This document shows positions 939 through 34,811 of a stretch of DNA of 64,000 nucleotides, piece after piece; within the stretch, counting starts at the first letter, position 1, and the number at the start of each line of letters is the position of its first letter. Made by a program: the position numbers and the translations under genes. Origin of the DNA: Candidatus Phycocordibacter aenigmaticus (GTDB taxonomy: Bacteria; Patescibacteriota; Minisyncoccia; Phycocordibacterales; Phycocordibacteraceae); assembly GCA_045401115.1 (NCBI GenBank), contig CP174359.1, positions 291,247-355,246 of the forward strand, written 5' to 3'. Below the pieces are notes generated by a model, which made no database searches, was not told where the DNA came from, and saw only the letters and a list, made by a program, of their open reading frames with translations.

Positions 939-1610
939 ATGCAAAAAATAATATTTATTATTATCGGGGTAATCATAATCGCAGCGGGAGTGTGGTACTT
1001 CATGTCTTCGGACACGCCCAACATAACTAATCAGGAAGATGCAGGAAGCACAGTCGCTACCGTAAACGGAGAGGAGATATCGCGTGGTGAGTTTGAAGAA
1101 TTTAAAACACAGATAGCAGCGCAGCAAGGAATTGATTTCGCTTCATTAGATGCGGACACACGCGCTCAGTTTGAACAGCAAATTCTCAACGAACTCGTCA
1201 ACCAAACACTATTGCAACAAATTGTTGCGGAAGCAGAGGTTACAGCGTCATCAGATGACGTTGATGCGCAGATCACCGCGATTATAACCCAGGTAGGTGG
1301 CGAAGAGGCGTTTAGAGAGGCGCTCGCTGATCAAGAATTATCAGAAGAAGAATTCCGTACACAAATTAGTGGTGACCTTGCAGTTCAGGCGTACTTTGAA
1401 GAACAATTAAACCTTTCTACTTTCACCGCAACCGATGCAGAGATTGAGGAAACGTATACTCAGGTAGCTGCTCAGAACGAAGACCTCCCACCACTTGATG
1501 AGGTACGTGACCAGGTTGAACAAGCAGTCATTCAACAAAAACAACAAGCGGCACTTGCTGAATTTGTAGCAGAGTTACGTCAAGAAGCAGACGTAGAAAT
1601 CTTGTTATAA
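939..1610 (+). CDS. SurA N-terminal-domain-like periplasmic chaperone protein (N-terminal TM anchor, acidic and Q-rich)
   Basis: N-terminal hydrophobic helix, then an NGEEISRGEF...ELVNQTLLQQ segment typical of the SurA/PpiD N-terminal chaperone domain. No PPIase domain is present. Confidence 0.45.
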   Translation: MQKIIFIIIGVIIIAAGVWYFMSSDTPNITNQEDAGSTVATVNGEEISRGEFEEFKTQIAAQQGIDFASLDADTRAQFEQQILNELVNQTLLQQIVAEAEVTASSDDVDAQITAIITQVGGEEAFREALADQELSEEEFRTQISGDLAVQAYFEEQLNLSTFTATDAEIEETYTQVAAQNEDLPPLDEVRDQVEQAVIQQKQQAALAEFVAELRQEADVEILL

Positions 1611-1685
1611 AAAGAAGCATATTTTTTAAAAAAGCAGCGACCGAAAGCGGTACGCTGCTTTTTTAAATTAAAGAGAGTAGGGGAT

Positions 1686-2339
1686 CTACTGCGCCAGCGC
1701 GATACCGGCGACGTGGCGTACTCCCGCAGCTTTGAGTGCACGCATCGCGTCTTTCATGGTGGCGCCACTTTCAATCACGTCATCAATAAGGAGTACTGAA
1801 GCACCAGTGAGTTCTCCACTGCGCGCGATAGGGTTCGGTACGTAAAAACTATTTTTGATATTTTCTTTTCTTTCACGGCGTGTAAGCCAGGACTGACTTT
1901 CGCGATTGTCGCGTTTTAATATATCTGGTCGGTACGAACACTCCGCAAGAACATCAGGTGGTAGTGCCTGCATAATGTGAACCACTTGGTTATACCCACG
2001 CTCACGTTTGCGTTTTGGCGCGGCAGGTAGGGGAGTAATAATCGGATGATTCCACTGAAGGGTGAGTGCGTTCTCTTCAAAGAATATAAATAACGCTTCT
2101 TCAAGTACGGCGCCGAGTATAGTGGATGCGTGTATGCTCCCATAAAATTTATTTGCTCGGATAACCGCTTGAACACGTGCATCGTGGTAAGGAAGGCAGG
2201 TAAATGTAGTTTTCCCGACGGCTGTACGGTATTGCATCAGGTCAAGTAGTTGCGCGCGACTTACCTCATGGGCTTTTGCGACATCCGGATGAGGTGGAAA
2301 AATCAAGTTGAGAATACTATTTAAGAATTGCTTCCGCAT
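1686..2339 (-). CDS. comFC: ComF family competence protein (phosphoribosyltransferase domain)
   Basis: C-terminal PRTase motif VLLIDDVIESGATMKDAMRALKAAG, matching the ComFC/amidophosphoribosyltransferase-like family. It sits beside the pilus locus. Confidence 0.75.
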   Translation of the reverse strand: MRKQFLNSILNLIFPPHPDVAKAHEVSRAQLLDLMQYRTAVGKTTFTCLPYHDARVQAVIRANKFYGSIHASTILGAVLEEALFIFFEENALTLQWNHPIITPLPAAPKRKRERGYNQVVHIMQALPPDVLAECSYRPDILKRDNRESQSWLTRRERKENIKNSFYVPNPIARSGELTGASVLLIDDVIESGATMKDAMRALKAAGVRHVAGIALAQ

Positions 2340-2363
2340 GATATTCTAATAGTATTCTATATT

Positions 2364-3469
2364 ATGGCATCACCTCTGTCTGGCGCATCTCAAGCGCTCC
2401 AAAATTTTTTCCGCGATTTTCGTAAACAAGACGGCGAAAGTGTTATTGGTGTTGATATTGGCACCTCGAGTATTAAGATTGTGCAGCTTGCCGAAAAAAA
2501 GGCGCCGCTGTGCTTGAAACCTATGGCGAGATTGCTGTCGGTCCCTATGCAGAAGGTGAGGTAGGACAGTCGGTAAATCCACCGGCTGCCAAAGTAGCTG
2601 AAGCGCTTGTTGACCTTATGAGGGAAGCAAATGTTACATCAAAAGTGGGTGGTTTTTCAGTACCCCTGTCAGCGAGCCTTATTTCACTCATCTCACTACC
2701 AACTAAGAAAACCGCTGATTTGGCGGCAATGATTCCTATCGAAGCGCGGAAATATATTCCTGTGCCTATTAGTGAAGTAACACTCGACTGGTTTGTTATT
2801 CCCGAAGAGGAGGCAGAATTTCTCGGTGGCGCCAATCGTGAAAAGAATAAAAACAATACAGACGTGCTTTTAGTTGCTATTCATAACGCGACACTTAATC
2901 GGCTTAGTGCAGTCACTGAGGGAGCGTCAATCGCGCCACGTTTTTATGAAATCGAACCGTTCAGCATATCGCGCAGTGCATATGAACATGACACCGCACC
3001 AACAATGATAATTGACCTCGGCGCATCCGGTACCCGAGTCTATATTATTGAATTTGGCATCGTTGATGTGTCACACACCATTAACCGGGGAGGGCAGGAT
3101 ATTACACTTGCGCTTTCAAAGTCACAAGGACTTTCGTTTGCTGAAGCAGAGAAACTAAAACGTTCCGAAGGTCTTGAGGGAAGTGAGACAGGGAAAACCA
3201 GTATGCATTATATTTTTTCAGAAGCACGTCGTATTTTTCTTTCCTATCAACGCAAAGAAGGAAAAGCTATCTCTGGTGTTGTGTTAACTGGTGGTGGCGC
3301 ACAAATGAAAGGAATAGATGCTATTGCCGCTGAATATTTTGATGCGCCGATTAGTTTTGCTACTGCTTTTGATCGTGTAGCGGCACCCGCTTTTATTGGT
3401 GATGTATTACGCAGCGCCGGACCATCGTTTGCGTCAGCAGTCGGTCTTGCACTTCGCGCGATTAAATAA
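2364..3469 (+). CDS. pilM: type IV pilus assembly protein PilM, reading frame interrupted by a -1 shift in an A7 homopolymer (about 2494-2500)
   Basis: Track ORF 2328-2564 (VIGVDIGTSSIKIVQLAEKK, the PilM N-terminus) continues in ORF 2510-3469 in another frame (GAAVLETYGEIAVGPY... actin-like fold). The junction lies in the aaaaaaa run. Confidence 0.75.
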
Positions 3470-7058: not shown

Positions 7059-7463
7059 ATGACAGAAAACTCAAAAAATAACGGCACTATTTTTCTCGTT
7101 GACGACGATAGATTTTTACTCGACATATACTCAGTCAAGTTTAAGGAGTCGGGTTTTTCGGTCATTGCCAATGTTGACCCACAGGACGCGTTAAAGAAAT
7201 TACGCGAAGGCACAAAGCCGGATATTATATTACTTGACGTTATTATGCCGAACATGACCGGTTTTGAGTTGTTAGAGACCGCCCGAAATGAAAAATTAAT
7301 CGAAGACGCGACGGTAATTATTCTTTCAAACCAAGGTCATGACGATGATATACAAAAGGCAAACGAACTTGGTGCCGATGGGTACATCATCAAGGCGAGT
7401 GCCATACCTTCAGAGGTACTCACTAAAACACTCGAGTTCGTCAACCAAAAGAAAAGTGGGTAG
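7059..7463 (+). CDS. CheY-like response regulator receiver domain protein (PilH/PilG-like, no output domain)
   Basis: Receiver motifs (LVDDD, DxxxLDVxMP, K near the C-terminus). It lies between pilB and pilT. Confidence 0.8.
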   Translation: MTENSKNNGTIFLVDDDRFLLDIYSVKFKESGFSVIANVDPQDALKKLREGTKPDIILLDVIMPNMTGFELLETARNEKLIEDATVIILSNQGHDDDIQKANELGADGYIIKASAIPSEVLTKTLEFVNQKKSG

Positions 7464-7528: not shown

Positions 7529-8590
7529 ATGCAGTACGAACAAGAACTCACCACGCTTTTAGAAACAGTCATCACTGAAGGTGCTTCTGATTTACATCTC
7601 ACCGCAGATTCGCAGCCGATTATTCGTGTATCTGGTTCGTTACTTCCACTGGTAAAGCATGAAAAATATTCCGACGAAACAGTGCGAAAGTTTCTTGAGA
7701 TACTCGTTGAGCCAGAGAAAGCGCAAGCGTTTTATGACGAGCAAGAACTCGATTTTTCATATCAGTATAAAGATCAAGGTCGGTTCCGCGGTAACGCGTT
7801 TTTTGAACGAGGGAATATTTCTATCGCGCTGCGTCTCATCCCGCGCGAGGTAAAAACTTTCGATGAATTAAATTTACCGCCAGTGTTAGAAACATTTGCA
7901 CAACTTCAACAAGGTTTCTTTTTAGTGGTAGGTCCGGTTGGGCAGGGTAAGTCTACGACACTTGCCTCAATGATTGAATATATTAATCAAAATCGCACCG
8001 AACATATCGTCACTATTGAGAATCCGATTGAATATATTTACGAATCCAAACAGTCAATTATTAATCAACGTGAAGTGCGTATTGATACACAAAGTTTCCA
8101 TTCAGCCCTCAAATCAGCATTTCGTCAGGATATTGATGTGTTGATGGTCGGTGAGATGCGTGGCCCTGACACTATGGCGGCCGCGGTGACCGCTGCTGAA
8201 ACTGGCCATCTTGTACTCTCTACATTACATACCAATAATGCAGCACAAACCATTGACCGTATTATTGACTCTTTCCCAGCAGGACAACAAGATCAAATCC
8301 GCCTGCAGCTTGCATCCAGTCTTGCAGGTATATTTTCACAGCGTTTAGTCCCACGCATTTCCGGTGGTTTAATACCTGCGTATGAATTACTTATCAACAA
8401 TGAAGCGGTATCCAATTTGATCCGCGAGCGACGTACTCATGAAATTAATGCGGTAATCGAAACCGGACTTGAGTCCGGTATGGTTGATATGAACCGCTCT
8501 CTTGCCGACTTAGTACGCCGCGGGGAAGTGACACAAGAAAATGCCCGTTCACGCGCGCTTGATCCAAAAGCGTTCTCTCGATTAATGTAA
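7529..8590 (+). CDS. pilT: twitching motility ATPase PilT
   Basis: Walker A GPVGQGKSTT, a PilT-type Asp box and His box, about 350 aa. Confidence 0.9.
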   Translation: MQYEQELTTLLETVITEGASDLHLTADSQPIIRVSGSLLPLVKHEKYSDETVRKFLEILVEPEKAQAFYDEQELDFSYQYKDQGRFRGNAFFERGNISIALRLIPREVKTFDELNLPPVLETFAQLQQGFFLVVGPVGQGKSTTLASMIEYINQNRTEHIVTIENPIEYIYESKQSIINQREVRIDTQSFHSALKSAFRQDIDVLMVGEMRGPDTMAAAVTAAETGHLVLSTLHTNNAAQTIDRIIDSFPAGQQDQIRLQLASSLAGIFSQRLVPRISGGLIPAYELLINNEAVSNLIRERRTHEINAVIETGLESGMVDMNRSLADLVRRGEVTQENARSRALDPKAFSRLM

Positions 8591-8595
8591 CGCAT

Positions 8596-9798
8596 ATGAT
8601 TTTTGAATATAAAGCAGTTGATCAAAGTGGGGCAGAGCAAACAGGAACTATTGATGCGGTATCGCGCGAAGTCGCAATTAGCTCACTCCAGCGTCGTGGT
8701 CTTTCGATAACTTCAATAGAAGAAAAGAAGACTGAAGGGGGTGGTTTAAATATCACCTTGTTTGAAACAGTATCTATTAAGGATGTTGTATTGCTTTCAC
8801 GACAAATATCCACTCTATTTGAAGCTCAAGTTTCAGCACTTCGGGTGTTCCGCCTTCTTGCATCAGAGTCTGATAAACCTATTTTACAACGCACGCTCAC
8901 TGCGGTGGCTGACGACTTACAGGCAGGTACTCCTATCTCAAAAGCTTTAAGCAAGCATCCAAAGGTATTTGGCGATTTTTATGTAAACATGGTGAAAAGT
9001 GGTGAAGAATCTGGACGACTTGATGAAACATTTCTTTATCTTGCTGACTATCTTGATCGAAACTACGCTATTGTTTCAAAAGCACGTAATGCGTTAATTT
9101 ATCCGGCATTTGTTATCTCTACGTTTGTTATCGTGATGATTCTTATGATGACTATGGTCATCCCTCGTATCTCGACCATTCTTACTGATTCAGGGCAAGA
9201 AATTCCTGTATATACACAAGTGGTCATTGCACTTTCGAACTTCTTTGTTGACTACGGTATTCTTCTCTTGATTTTAGCGGTGGTCGGTGGTTTCTTTTTG
9301 GTTCGCTACGGTATTACCAAGGGAGGAAAGGCACAGTTCGATCGTCTACAAGTAAACACGCCATACATTGGTAATTTGTATCAAAAACTATATCTCTCAC
9401 GTATTGCTGATAACCTTGCAACTATGTTGGGAAGCGGTATCTCAGTGGTACAAGCAACAGAAGTGACCGCTTCGGTGGTAGGTAATTCTGTATATTCAGA
9501 AATTCTAAAAGATGTTACTACGTCAGTAAAAGGTGGGGGTTCAGTATCCGCCGCGCTTTCTCAGTATCGCGAGATACCGGGTATTATGACTGCCATGATT
9601 AAAGTGGGTGAGGAAACTGGTGAACTCGGAAATATCCTTAAAACCCTTGCTCGTTTCTATGAACGTGAGGTAAATAATGCCGTCGACACTTTGGTTGATT
9701 TAATTGAACCATTTATGATTGTGGTGCTCGGACTTGGTGTTGGTATTCTTCTTGCATCAGTATTGATTCCTATTTACAACATCTCCTCAGCTATCTAA
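8596..9798 (+). CDS. pilC: type IV pilus platform protein PilC (GspF family)
   Basis: Two GspF repeats with three or four TM helices, about 400 aa. Confidence 0.9.
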   Translation: MIFEYKAVDQSGAEQTGTIDAVSREVAISSLQRRGLSITSIEEKKTEGGGLNITLFETVSIKDVVLLSRQISTLFEAQVSALRVFRLLASESDKPILQRTLTAVADDLQAGTPISKALSKHPKVFGDFYVNMVKSGEESGRLDETFLYLADYLDRNYAIVSKARNALIYPAFVISTFVIVMILMMTMVIPRISTILTDSGQEIPVYTQVVIALSNFFVDYGILLLILAVVGGFFLVRYGITKGGKAQFDRLQVNTPYIGNLYQKLYLSRIADNLATMLGSGISVVQATEVTASVVGNSVYSEILKDVTTSVKGGGSVSAALSQYREIPGIMTAMIKVGEETGELGNILKTLARFYEREVNNAVDTLVDLIEPFMIVVLGLGVGILLASVLIPIYNISSAI

Positions 9799-18108: not shown

Positions 18109-18182
18109 AGCGGGGTGGAGGAGAGGTACCTCGGGAGGCTCATAACCTCCAGGCCCTGGTTCGATTCCAGGCCCCGCAACCA
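18109..18182 (+). tRNA. tRNA-Met/Ile2 (anticodon CAT), CCA encoded, 1:72 mismatch (A:A), short D-loop
   Basis: Manual fold: acceptor GCGGGG/CCCCGC, D-stem GAGG/CCTC, anticodon stem GGAGG/CCTCC with loop CTCATAA, T-arm CCTGG-TTCGATT-CCAGG, then A-CCA. Confidence 0.6.
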
Positions 18183-19996: not shown

Positions 19997-20069
19997 GCCG
20001 GTGTAGTTCAACGGTTAGAACGAGGGACTCATAAACCCTAGACGGAAGTTCGACTCTTCCCATCGGCAC
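19997..20069 (+). tRNA. tRNA-Met-type (anticodon CAT; could be initiator, elongator or Ile2-lysidine), CCA not encoded
   Basis: Acceptor GCCGGTG/CATCGGC, D-arm GTTC-AACGGTTA-GAAC, anticodon loop CTCATAA, T-arm GGAAG-TTCGACT-CTTCC. Confidence 0.6.
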
Positions 20070-21849: not shown

Positions 21850-21923
21850 TGCGGGTGTAGCTCAGATGGTTAGAGCGTCCGCCTGTCACGCGGAAGGTCG
21901 TGGGTTCAAGTCCCATCACTCGC
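21850..21923 (+). tRNA. tRNA-Asp (anticodon GTC)
   Basis: Acceptor GCGGGTG/CACTCGC (with a G-U pair), D-arm GCTCAGATGGTTAGAGC, anticodon stem TCCGC/GCGGA with loop CTGTCAC, T-arm GTGGG-TTCAAGT-CCCAT. Confidence 0.8.
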
Positions 21924-21927
21924 GCAT

Positions 21928-28426: not shown

Positions 28427-28435
28427 GGATTTAAA

Positions 28436-28466
28436 AATCACTCGCAATTGCGAGTGATTTTTTGGA
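28436..28466. terminator. bidirectional terminator hairpin AAAAATCACTCGCAATTGCGAGTGATTTTTT
   Basis: Perfect palindrome flanked by A-runs and T-runs on both sides. Confidence 0.6.
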
Positions 28467-28538
28467 GCCACCTCCCGGGATTGAACCGGGGACCTTGTCG
28501 TTACGAGTGACACGCTCTACCAACTGAGCTAAGGTGGC
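28463..28538 (-). tRNA. tRNA-Thr (anticodon CGT), CCA encoded
   Basis: Reverse complement folds as GCCACCT/AGGTGGC acceptor, D-arm GCTCAGTTGGTAGAGC, loop CTCGTAA, T-arm CCCGG-TTCAATC-CCGGG, T-CCA. Confidence 0.75.
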
Positions 28539-28550
28539 AGGTCCTCTGAG

Positions 28551-28830
28551 TGAGGAAACCTGGAGCCGTTGCCCGGGCTTGAACCGGGGACCTCATCCTT
28601 CGCTTACACCTCTCCTTTATGTATACGAGAGGGCTAGACTGTATCTTCATCCAATCTAAGGATTGGATGCCCTTGTCAGTCGTTCGGGCCTGAAAGTAAA
28701 ATTTCATGCCACGGTCTGAGCCCCTCAAGGCCTTTAACCGTTATTCGGGATTCATCTCAACATTACTATTGAGATGGGCAGGGGTGTGCGACCCACCATG
28801 GATGCGCTCTACCGACTGAGCTACAACGGC
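28551..28830 (-). tRNA. tRNA-Thr (anticodon GGT) interrupted by a 204-nt intron between anticodon-loop positions 36 and 37; exons 28795-28830 and 28551-28590
   Basis: Exon 1 is GCCGTTG-TA-GCTCAGTCGGTAGAGC-G-CATCC-ATGGT. Exon 2 is AA-GGATG-AGGTC-CCCGG-TTCAAGC-CCGGG-CAACGGC-T-CCA. Acceptor and anticodon stems pair perfectly and the loop reconstitutes as AUGGUAA. Confidence 0.6.
28591..28794 (-). ncRNA. putative self-splicing group I intron within tRNA-Thr(GGT)
   Basis: Follows exon U36 and ends in G (omega-G). Contains the S-element-like AAGAUACAGUCU (consensus AAGAUAUAGUCY). Size is comparable to the about 205-nt Azoarcus tRNA-Ile intron. No ORF inside. Confidence 0.45.
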
Positions 28831-28940
28831 GAGAGACTAATGAGCATACGCGACTTTTGCAAGCAAGATGAAAATGGAAGCTCGCTTACATTTTCATTGC
28901 TGCGTAGCAAAAGAATGAGTGTATGCTCTCGGCTTGAAGA

Positions 28941-29073
28941 CGTTGCAAGACGACCAAGAGGGAGTCTTACAACGGCTTTCTCTCAGTTCGATGCCGTTGC
29001 AAGGCGACGTTTAGGAGCCTTACAACGAGCAGCATTTTCAACAGGACGGCGTTGCAAGCTTTGCTTACAACAG
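28941..29073 (+). repeat. three tandem imperfect palindromes GTTGCAAG-N(7-19)-CTTACAAC in the prfB leader
   Basis: Units at 28941-28975, 28994-29029 and 29049-29073, read from the sequence. A separate hairpin GATGAAAATG...CATTTTCATTGC lies at 28876-28910. Confidence 0.5.
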
Positions 29074-29165
29074 TCTCTACTCACTGCTACTCTTATTTTT
29101 TAAAGCAGCTCTGCTATAGTACCGAAAAACTCCCATTTTGCCAAAGGTGCGATACACTAGTACCA

Positions 29166-30044
29166 ATGAACAAAGACGAAGCACAACGAAGAATTCAAGA
29201 AATCGAAGCGGCTATGGTCCAGCCTGATTTTTGGAATGACTCAGCAAAAGCACAGGAACTCATTAAAGAAATGAAAAATCTCCAGGCAGTTGCTGAGGGC
29301 GGTTCAAAGTATGACGGCGGTGGCGCCACACTGACCATCCTTGGCGGCGCCGGCGGTACCGATGCAGAAGACTTCGCAGCGATATTGTTTCGTATGTACC
29401 AAAGCTATGCCGAAAACAAAGGGTGGGATGTTATGGTGCTTCACGAAAACGCAAATGAGCACGGTGGTTATCGCAACATTACATTTGATGTATTAGGAAA
29501 GAAGGTATATGGCAATTTAAAATATGAATCTGGCGTGCATCGTTTGGTGCGTATCTCTCCGTTTAATTCGAATGCAAAACGACACACGGCGTTCGCGATG
29601 GTTGAAGTGCTTCCAAAAATTGTAGGTGATGAAGAAATTGAACTTAAAGAAGATGAACTTGATGTGCAATTTAGTAAGTCGGGTGGGGCTGGTGGGCAGA
29701 ATGTGAACAAACGCGAAACAGCAGTTCGTGTCGTACATATCCCCACCAATATGTCCGTCAGTGTTTCAAGTGAACGCAGTCAACAAGCAAACCGTGAACA
29801 AGCTATGGAGCTCCTTAAAGCAAAGTTGGTAGCGCGTGAAGAAGAAAAACAAGAAAAAGAAATGCGTGGACACTCGGTGGCCGCCACAACGTCCGCAGAG
29901 TGGGGTAGTCAGATTCGCTCATACGTACTACATCCATATAAGATGGTAAAAGATCATCGCACTGGTGTTGAAGAACGCGATATTGACTCTGTATTAGAAG
30001 GGGACTTGGATAGCTTTATAGACGCAATGCGTTCAGTAGAGTAA
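29166..30044 (+). CDS. prfB: peptide chain release factor 2, no programmed +1 frameshift site detected, domain 1 about 45-50 aa shorter than E. coli RF2
   Basis: SPF tripeptide (RISPFNSNAKRHT), GGQ (SGGAGGQNVNK) and the C-terminal WGSQIRSYV motif. The N-terminus aligns to E. coli RF2 from about residue 27 onward. No upstream CUU-UGA-C in the correct frame. Confidence 0.8.
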   Translation: MNKDEAQRRIQEIEAAMVQPDFWNDSAKAQELIKEMKNLQAVAEGGSKYDGGGATLTILGGAGGTDAEDFAAILFRMYQSYAENKGWDVMVLHENANEHGGYRNITFDVLGKKVYGNLKYESGVHRLVRISPFNSNAKRHTAFAMVEVLPKIVGDEEIELKEDELDVQFSKSGGAGGQNVNKRETAVRVVHIPTNMSVSVSSERSQQANREQAMELLKAKLVAREEEKQEKEMRGHSVAATTSAEWGSQIRSYVLHPYKMVKDHRTGVEERDIDSVLEGDLDSFIDAMRSVE

Positions 30045-34716: not shown

Positions 34717-34787
34717 TGCCGGATCGTCTAATGGCAGGACGCTTGGTTCTGGTCCAAGAAATCGGGGTTCGAGTCCCTGTCCGGCAA
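34717..34787 (+). tRNA. tRNA-Gln (anticodon CTG), U1:A72, 3-bp D-stem
   Basis: TGCCGGA-TC-GTC-TAATGGCAG-GAC-G-CTTGG-TTCTGGT-CCAAG-AAAT-CGGGG-TTCGAGT-CCCTG-TCCGGCA-A. Confidence 0.75.
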
Positions 34788-34811
34788 CTAAGGCCACAAA
34801 CCCGCGATAGG

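Follow-up and report, generated by a model that had tools for sequence, protein, structure and literature searches.

How a tRNA-Thr(GGU) gene that lies in two pieces could give rise to a normal tRNA is the question raised by one locus of the window, the 64,000-nucleotide stretch of contig CP174359.1 of Candidatus Phycocordibacter aenigmaticus analysed here. A preliminary description took two minus-strand segments of this sequence for one tRNA-Thr gene, split in its anticodon loop by a group-I-like intron. The comparisons set out below make it very probable that this gene, a Patescibacteria tRNA-Thr(GGU), is interrupted at the 36/37 site by a compact group I intron of 194 nt without an open reading frame (ORF), and that splicing leaves a normal tRNA. 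The exon/intron boundaries, the fold, membership of a family and the existence of intron-less alleles are established.

The split gene and its intron-less counterparts

The gene lies on the minus strand in three pieces (Table 1): a 5' exon, GCCGUUGUAGCUCAGUCGGUAGAGCGCAUCCAUGGU, an insert with the first bases GGGUCGC and the last bases AAGCG, and a 3' exon, AAGGAUGAGGUCCCCGGUUCAAGCCCGGGCAACGGCUCCA. Given the joined exons, ARAGORN returns a tRNA-Thr(ggt) of 76 nt with a canonical cloverleaf, comprising an acceptor stem of 7 bp, a D stem of 4 bp, an anticodon stem of 5 bp, a T stem of 5 bp and the loop AUGGUAA, together with a U as discriminator (U73) and an encoded CCA. The two segments are therefore one gene with intact stems, as had been proposed, and the observation of a split is confirmed as real. 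The splice junction falls between U36 and A37 and the 3' base of the insert is G; both points had been read in the same way before, and both hold in all 112 homologous copies described below. The lengths had been judged less well: the insert was put at 204 nt but measures 194 nt, and the interval given for the gene began at 28551, 10 nt too far, since the gene ends at 28561. The insert contains no ORF of more than 37 amino acids, in keeping with the earlier statement that no homing endonuclease ORF lies inside, and its folding is well below that of shuffled controls (z = -4.8).

The junction can be defined independently of any folding, because syntenic intron-less alleles exist. Relatives of the locus were taken from the best 80 matches to the RF2 protein encoded next to it, among which the order Thr(GGU) then Thr(CGU) near prfB recurs. 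In 42 related GTDB loci a Thr(GGU) gene was called near prfB; in 36 it is intact, and in six (L015, L024, L052, L056, L069 and L080) it is split by an insert homologous to that of the window (nhmmer E 8e-11 to 5e-21). The same genomic slot in relatives is thus usually occupied by an intron-less Thr(GGU). At L003 (Ca. Kaiserbacteria), where RF2 is closest to that of the window, the intact Thr(GGU) is 90% identical to the spliced tRNA, whose mean identity is 79% to 36 GGU genes as against 70% to 60 CGU genes. A second Thr(GGU) gene was found neither within the 64-kb window nor within the ~6-kb loci of the six intron-bearing relatives.

The window and the six split relatives have in common a 17-mer, GCCCGAACGACUGACAA, with which metagenome and viral contigs were scanned. 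It matches at least 120 metagenome loci and 14 viral-contig loci, and in 112 of the matches listed the 17-mer lies within a split tRNA called by intron-aware ARAGORN. These receive various names (Thr(ggt) 53, Arg(gcg) 41, His(gtg) 10, others). When resolved by the rule that U precedes the 5' splice site and G ends the intron, all 112 become tRNA-Thr(GGU) with the arrangement U36 / intron...G / A37. The 5-bp anticodon stem is present in 110 of the 112, and every spliced product tested (105/105) is called Thr(ggt). The 107 unique introns span 170-230 nt and all of them end in G. A further 29 pattern matches have no ARAGORN call, some being at contig ends and some being phage introns; of seven inspected, three (L203, L117 and L137) have no intron core and look like chance matches to the 17-mer.

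Fold of the intron and its conservation

The fold was modelled on the family as a whole. Sixteen members were aligned with MAFFT (alignment A1) and P1-P9 were annotated on the window sequence, giving a covariance model, R1, which was used to align 97 matches (alignment A2; 93 distinct rows); P3 was written as a pseudoknot for the pair counts. In A2, standard pairs occupy 91.8% of cells, compared with 74.1% after shuffling and 34-46% when the partners are slid, and the covariation score is 0.471, compared with 0.151 and 0.05-0.09, respectively. Compensatory changes are seen in 40 of the 55 modelled pairs, and none of 500 shuffles reaches the observed value on any measure. RNAalifold, applied to the unfitted MAFFT alignment, recovers P1, P2, P4, P5, P6, P7, P8 and P9, though not the pseudoknotted P3; it also recovers the tRNA anticodon stem that spans the whole intron, and this stem itself covaries.

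Both splice sites are fixed by covarying helices. In P1, U36 forms the splice-site wobble with G 28779, and GCC serves as the internal guide sequence; U.G and G-C are each found in 91 of 91 family members. Intron position +1 pairs with the base 5' of the guide G in 89 of 90 members (GU41/AU32/GC11/UA5) and position +2 pairs in 81 of 89, and because this intron part of P1 covaries, the 5' splice site is fixed. A P1 extension drawn with a 2-nt bulge gives only 69% pairing, and the continuous register fits much better. At the other end, the two base pairs of P9.0 join the two bases after CAGUCUA to the two bases before the terminal G. They are paired in 98.9% of cells, with GC54/AU30/UA4/CG2 at one pair and CG48/UA35/UG8 at the other, and this covariation fixes the 3' splice site.

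The helices between these sites are kept in a similar way. P3, of 3 bp, is paired in 98-99% of cells, with CG replaced by UA in five and two sequences and by UG in five. P4 is paired throughout (100%), with U.G replaced by C-G in nine sequences, and compensatory changes occur in four of the five pairs of P5 and in all six of P9. P7 (GACUG/CAGUC) is invariant; the 17-mer used for the collection fixed J6/7 and the 5' strand of P7, so this helix is uninformative. Its G 28681-C 28637 pair we take to be the guanosine-binding pair, from its position and by analogy to Tetrahymena G264-C311. The predicted fold has no P7.1 or P7.2 helices, and its J6/7-P7 sequence, AACGACU, presumably resembles that of phage T4 td. 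P10 is weak; in 74 of 90 members a U, complementary to A37, stands just 5' of the guide G, and 33 of 90 have UU.

An S-element-like sequence had been pointed out in the insert, and it is indeed there (AAGAUACAGUCU, 28647-28636). The J8/7-P7 stretch, GAUGAAGAUACAGUCU, matches the RF00028 consensus AAGAUAUAGUC, with a compensated change from A-U to G-C in P7. Comparison with the Rfam group I model RF00028, suggested as a check on the earlier reading, succeeds in part: in E-value mode the model aligns over its full length (1-253) to 28781-28613 (E 0.011, 501-nt search), but with a score below the cut-off. The complete P1-P9 core can be modelled, its helices following the expected order in a P4-P6 and a P3-P8-P7 domain joined by the P3/P7 pseudoknot, with backing from covariation, which bears out the group I assignment. 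So far as sequence comparison can show, the intron has all the group I hallmarks open to such a test, and covariation backs the helices other than the invariant P7.

Table 1. Positions of the tRNA-Thr(GGU) exons, the elements of the predicted intron fold and the adjoining features, in window numbering
Feature	Positions	Strand	Basis
5' exon of tRNA-Thr(GGU), nt 1-36; anticodon GGU at its end, U36 the splice-site U	28795-28830	-	Read directly; ARAGORN on joined exons
Group I intron, 194 nt, from G+1 (28794) to terminal omega-G (28601)	28601-28794	-	RF00028 19.5 bits; family model R1 206.8 bits
3' exon of tRNA-Thr(GGU), nt 37-73 plus CCA (28563-28561)	28561-28600	-	Read directly; ARAGORN on joined exons
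P1: exon GGU (28797-28795) and intron GGG (28794-28792) with CCUGCC (28782-28777)	28777-28797	-	Covariation; RNAalifold de novo
P2 hairpin, 10 bp, GUAA tetraloop (28766-28763)	28753-28776	-	10/10 pairs with compensatory changes
P3 5' strand CCC, pairs with 28672-28670	28747-28749	-	Covariation
P3 3' strand GGG, forms pseudoknot with P7	28670-28672	-	Covariation
P4 (28741-28736 with 28716-28711) around P5 hairpin (28732-28719)	28711-28741	-	Covariation; RNAalifold
P6 hairpin, GGC/GCC base and variable extension	28687-28710	-	A2 pair counts; RNAalifold
P7 5' strand GACUG; G 28681 the predicted guanosine-binding G, paired with C 28637	28677-28681	-	Invariant 93/93; RNAalifold pairs it with 28641-28637
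P8 hairpin, 9 bp, tandem C-G pairs (CC:GG)	28648-28669	-	6/6 modelled pairs covary
J8/7 AAGAUA (28647-28642) and P7 3' strand CAGUC (28641-28637), the 'S element'	28637-28647	-	Matches RF00028 consensus; invariant in family
P9.0: GC 28634-28633 with GC 28603-28602, just before omega-G; encloses P9 hairpin (28632-28609)	28602-28634	-	Covariation
Intron-less tRNA-Thr(CGU), 22 nt downstream of tRNA-Thr(GGU)	28463-28538	-	ARAGORN; Thr(GGU)-Thr(CGU) pair kept in relatives
A-tract/13-bp hairpin/U-tract, likely (bidirectional) intrinsic terminator closing the two-tRNA unit	28433-28462	-	-18.1 kcal/mol, z = -10

The family also reveals a likely tertiary contact. The loop of P2 is a GNRA tetraloop; members with GAAA usually carry a motif resembling the 11-nt receptor (GCUAAG...UAUGC) in P8, whereas those with GUAA, GCAA or GCGA never do, having instead a plain P8 helix with tandem C-G pairs. 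The association between the GAAA tetraloop and the P8 receptor motif is strong (33 of 51 against 3 of 39; Fisher p = 2e-8, kinship ignored), and the copy in the window combines GUAA with CC:GG. This pairing of loop with P8 follows the preference rules for tetraloops and receptors reportedly drawn up by Costa and Michel in 1995. The tandem C-G pairs of P8 are thus the probable docking site of the GUAA tetraloop of L2, a contact that would clamp the two domains together. Because tetraloop type and P8 motif are correlated as those rules prescribe, the docking would be like that of the tRNA-Ile intron of Azoarcus, which we take to resemble the window intron both in this contact and in the 3-bp exon part of P1.

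Proposed splicing route and its alternatives

The fold suggests how the normal tRNA could be restored. The pre-tRNA-Thr(GGU) would be transcribed together with the downstream tRNA-Thr(CGU), and the intron would fold into P1-P9, with the last three bases of the exon, GGU, which are the anticodon itself, pairing with the guide GCC to form the U36.G wobble. Exogenous guanosine, held at the invariant P7 pair G28681-C28637, would attack after U36. The 2-bp P9.0 would then bring the terminal G (28601) into the same guanosine site, and the free 3'-OH of U36 would attack after G 28601, joining U36 to A37; a normal tRNA-Thr(GGU) would result and the intron would be set free. That the guide pairs with the anticodon GGU itself would explain why the family is confined to tRNA-Thr(GGU). 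The intron is probably self-splicing; we infer that it is catalytic and acts autonomously in vivo, and that the two tRNAs are made as one transcript.

Several points weigh against this scheme. The RF00028 score of 19.5 bits is far below the gathering score of 50. With only 3 bp in P3, and a P7 without the bulged nucleotide that many group I introns have, the core is atypical, and P10 amounts to 1-2 bp at most. The A2 alignment was fitted to its own model and its pairing is somewhat inflated, an objection only partly met by the slid-partner control and by RNAalifold on the unfitted alignment, and the collection by 17-mer forces the invariance that leaves P7 uninformative. The splicing assays in Nakagawa et al. 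2026 (PMC13011429, section 7) covered Asn and Asp introns only. As to the low score, the relatives score similarly (21.6-23.9 bits) and PMC13011429 reports the same for Thr(GGU) introns, so that it reflects a limit of the model and not an absent fold.

Some of these points suit the only live alternative, which is unlikely: that the group I fold is genuine but does not act alone in the cell, either because so minimal a core needs a host protein or special conditions, or because the efficiency of splicing regulates the supply of tRNA-Thr(GGU). The short P3, the weak P10 and the range of the published assays would all fit such a view, and regulatory roles are speculated upon in PMC13011429. However, the tRNA-Ile intron of Azoarcus self-splices robustly with about the same length and helices (P2-P9, P9.0) (PMC13168695), the elements of the catalytic core are all kept across the 107 unique copies, and no candidate gene for a cofactor is linked to the locus.

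Very little probability attaches to the gene being a dead tRNA-Thr(GGU), with a decayed intron or some other insertion that is no longer removed. The analysis covered DNA sequence, and the check for a second copy in this genome the 64-kb window, which leaves such a view some room. Yet the exons are perfectly canonical with their stems intact, and the intron helices are kept by compensatory changes in more than 100 lineages, which calls for selection on the RNA fold. The absence of a second Thr(GGU) from the window and from the loci of the intron-bearing relatives speaks against it too, as does the complete genome GCA_001029635.1, which has such an intron: by our own reading of the table in PMC13011429, it is credited with only two Thr genes by tRNAscan-SE and with one extra 'Arg' by ARAGORN.

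Such an 'Arg' also arises here, since intron-aware ARAGORN (-i) reports 28561-28830 as a tRNA-Arg(gcg) with i(35,194), as it does for 41 of the 112 family members. That the gene is a tRNA-Arg(GCG) with its intron between nt 34 and 35 is, however, even less credible than a dead gene. This boundary puts G and not U before the 5' splice site, and ruins both the conserved GGU/GCC pairing of the covarying P1 and the register of P9.0. The body of the tRNA is on average 79% identical to Thr(GGU) genes and has its D arm, T arm and U73 in common with the neighbouring tRNA-Thr, and the slot in relatives holds an intact Thr(GGU). PMC13011429 documents a call of this kind as an ARAGORN miscall. Finally, a chance conjunction of two tRNA halves and some hairpins, which the preliminary description had allowed for and which has the sub-threshold Rfam score and nothing else in its favour, is refuted by the 112 homologous split genes, all tRNA-Thr(GGU), by their conserved genomic position and by the strong covariation.

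Related introns and the surrounding sequence

Introns of this family, at this very site, are already on record for Patescibacteria, and the window intron is a new copy. In complete genomes of the phylum, Nakagawa et al. 2026 found three Thr(GGU) 36/37 introns (GCA_001029635.1, GCA_016700375.1 and GCA_030583745.1). RF00028 misses these, ARAGORN takes two for Arg(GCG) 34/35, and tFind is the one tool that recovers them (PMC13011429, Table 1). PMC13011429 equates them with the 'divergent group I introns' of Castelle et al. 2018, assigns the Patescibacteria tRNA introns to subgroup IA and places the Thr(GGU) introns on long branches within that clade (section 10); most tRNA introns are without a homing endonuclease (PMC13011429). 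The published Thr(GGU) introns share with that of the window the phylum, the tRNA, the site and the lack of a homing endonuclease, at least two of their three hosts (GCA_001029635.1 and GCA_030583745.1) belong to the class Paceibacteria, and the tools behave in the same way towards both (a miss by RF00028; Arg(GCG) 34/35 or Thr(GGU) 36/37 from ARAGORN). Host, tRNA, site and tool behaviour together argue strongly that the window intron belongs to this published family.

The nearest clade to the Thr introns is formed by the tRNA-Asn and tRNA-Asp 35/36 introns of Patescibacteria, which are of subgroup IA and self-splice in vitro (PMC13011429). Like the window intron, they lie in the anticodon loop, come from the same phylum and mostly have no ORF. 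In contrast to it, they are placed at 35/36, are detectable with RF00028 and have the conventional core AAUUGCGGGAAA ... UCAGAGACUA ... GAGAUAGUCC.

The closest well-studied analogue in architecture, though not in sequence, is the tRNA-Ile(CAU) intron of Azoarcus sp. BH72, with which the preliminary description had compared the insert for size. That intron has 205 nt, lies in the anticodon loop, contains P2-P9 and P9.0 and self-splices robustly (PMC13168695); like the window intron it is compact, with P1-P9 and P9.0, and has no large peripheral domains and no ORF (PMC13168695). It belongs to subgroup IC3, and in Williams 2020 (bioRxiv 10.1101/2020.01.27.920355) it is listed as Ile2.5Ug, at the same loop position as that of the window. 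The match in size is thus fair (194 against 205 nt), but the core is not of the Azoarcus/IC3 type. Its P3 has 6 bp as against 3 bp, and its core in the seed alignment, AAAUUCGGCGAAA / GGUGUAGAGACUAGAC GGCACC / AAGGCAUAGUCC, is unrelated to GAAUAACGGUUAAAG / GAACGACUGACAAGGG / AAGAUACAGUCUAG of the window intron. In a comparison with the Williams seed alignment, none of the IC3-type core motifs AAAUUCGGGGAAA, GGUGUAGAGACUAGAC and AAGGGAUAGUCC was found in the window intron, and a search of the Williams seeds for ACUGACAA and CGAAUAACGG gave no matches.

Williams 2020 raised the number of settings for group I introns in bacterial tRNAs from 4 to 21 and includes a class Thr.5Ug, with the seed Rba53.Thr.5Ug, which also follows the third anticodon base of tRNA-Thr and forms P1 from exon ggU and guide Gcc. 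The core of this seed is of the IC3 type, unlike that of the window intron, and thus at least two unrelated group I lineages occupy the Thr(GGU) 36/37 site.

Relatives of the family also occur outside tRNA genes. The IMG/VR viral contigs L209, L205/L215, L212, L210 and L204 share the 17-mer and score 44-102 bits with R1, the introns here differing from that of the window in not lying in tRNA genes. In L209 the intron (8332-8532, minus strand) splits an ORF (8429-9397 and 8173-8334) that probably encodes a capsid protein. These contigs suggest that relatives of the tRNA-Thr intron of the candidate phyla radiation (CPR) circulate in phages. A first scan of the viral contigs with a 24-base gapped pattern found no match, nor did blastn in distant mode find the intron in 50,697 annotated phage genomes. 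In L204 a further group I intron match (1061-1330, minus strand; RF00028 42.5 bits, under the cut-off of 50) adjoins the family-related one, so that this contig carries at least two introns close together, and in L212 an ORF of 463 amino acids with a reverse-transcriptase-like YMDD motif (1070-2461, minus strand) stands directly downstream of the group I intron match. On the metagenome contig L128, ~100 nt from a strong match to a tRNA-Thr intron, a second and weak match to the family model (7081-7291, minus strand; 27 bits, E 2e-5) may be another divergent intron.

It is conceivable, but improbable, that the Thr(GGU) introns are a separate and unusually minimal group I lineage, of 170-230 nt with a 3-bp P3 and an unbulged P7, which became fixed at a single tRNA site in many Patescibacteria with no homing endonuclease and has recent ancestry in common with introns of phage structural genes. 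Were this so, it could be, instead of a passive parasite, either a record of intron transfer from phage to CPR or a guanosine-sensing gate on the sole tRNA for ACC/ACU.

None of this will surprise a specialist, the locus being one more case of the published pattern in which genome-reduced Patescibacteria retain ORF-less group I introns in essential tRNA genes; its use lies in annotation and in the structure of the Thr family. Default ARAGORN misses the gene, Rfam at gathering thresholds gives no match to gene or intron, and intron-aware ARAGORN mislabels the gene as Arg(GCG). Because the split gene is missed or mislabelled in this way, genomes with the intron seem to lack tRNA-Thr(GGU), and the apparent loss distorts estimates of CPR genome completeness. 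The 112-copy comparative set supplies a covariation-supported secondary structure for the family, including P9.0 and the L2-P8 tetraloop/receptor switch.

The locus lies in a cellular genome, as is evident from its neighbours in the window: a class II ribonucleotide reductase, an ArsR-type regulator, a multicopper oxidase, a NUDIX hydrolase, RF2, FtsE, FtsX and CTP synthase. The best relatives of the RF2 protein have 64% identity or less and are mostly Patescibacteria/CPR metagenome-assembled genomes (MAGs) (Kaiserbacteria, Parcubacteria, Paceibacteria), the 64% being to Ca. Kaiserbacteria; the best 80 matches include a few unclassified MAGs and one labelled Bacteriovorax sp. The window is taken to come from an ultra-small, Paceibacteria-like CPR bacterium. 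The tRNA-Thr(CGU) gene that follows was already described as intron-less, correctly. The two genes are likely to be co-transcribed, because only 22 nt separate them on the same strand and a strong hairpin and U-tract come next; a scan of the tRNA unit for sigma-70 and terminator consensus sequences gave nothing useful, and left this hairpin unflagged too. The window has further tRNA genes without introns, for Met (18109-18182 and 19997-20069), Asp (21851-21925) and Gln (34717-34788), and R1 finds no other intron across its 64 kb.

The prfB gene (29052-30044, plus strand) has an apparent RF2 start at ATG 29166 (MNKDEAQ...), for a product of ~292 amino acids in which the PCRF domain is matched over the C-terminal half only. 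A programmed +1 frameshift joining ORFs 28774-29103 and 29052-30044 was considered and rejected, as similarity to RF2 begins near ATG 29166 and there is no CUU UGA site. The ORF at 28774-29103, on the strand opposite to the tRNA gene that it overlaps, is a mechanical artefact.

Between the tRNA-Thr unit and prfB lie three hairpin repeats (28942-28973, 28996-29026 and 29051-29071), whose common arms read GTTGCAAG-N(5-16)-CTTACAAC on the plus strand. They occur nowhere else in the 64-kb window, where 0.01 would be expected by chance, and the motif is absent from all 216 loci collected. Their fold has z = -4.2 on the minus strand and -3.2 on the plus. Read on the minus strand, the arms form a perfect stem with one G.U, a position that becomes C.A on the plus strand, which favours reading the repeats as minus-strand RNA upstream of tRNA-Thr(GGU).

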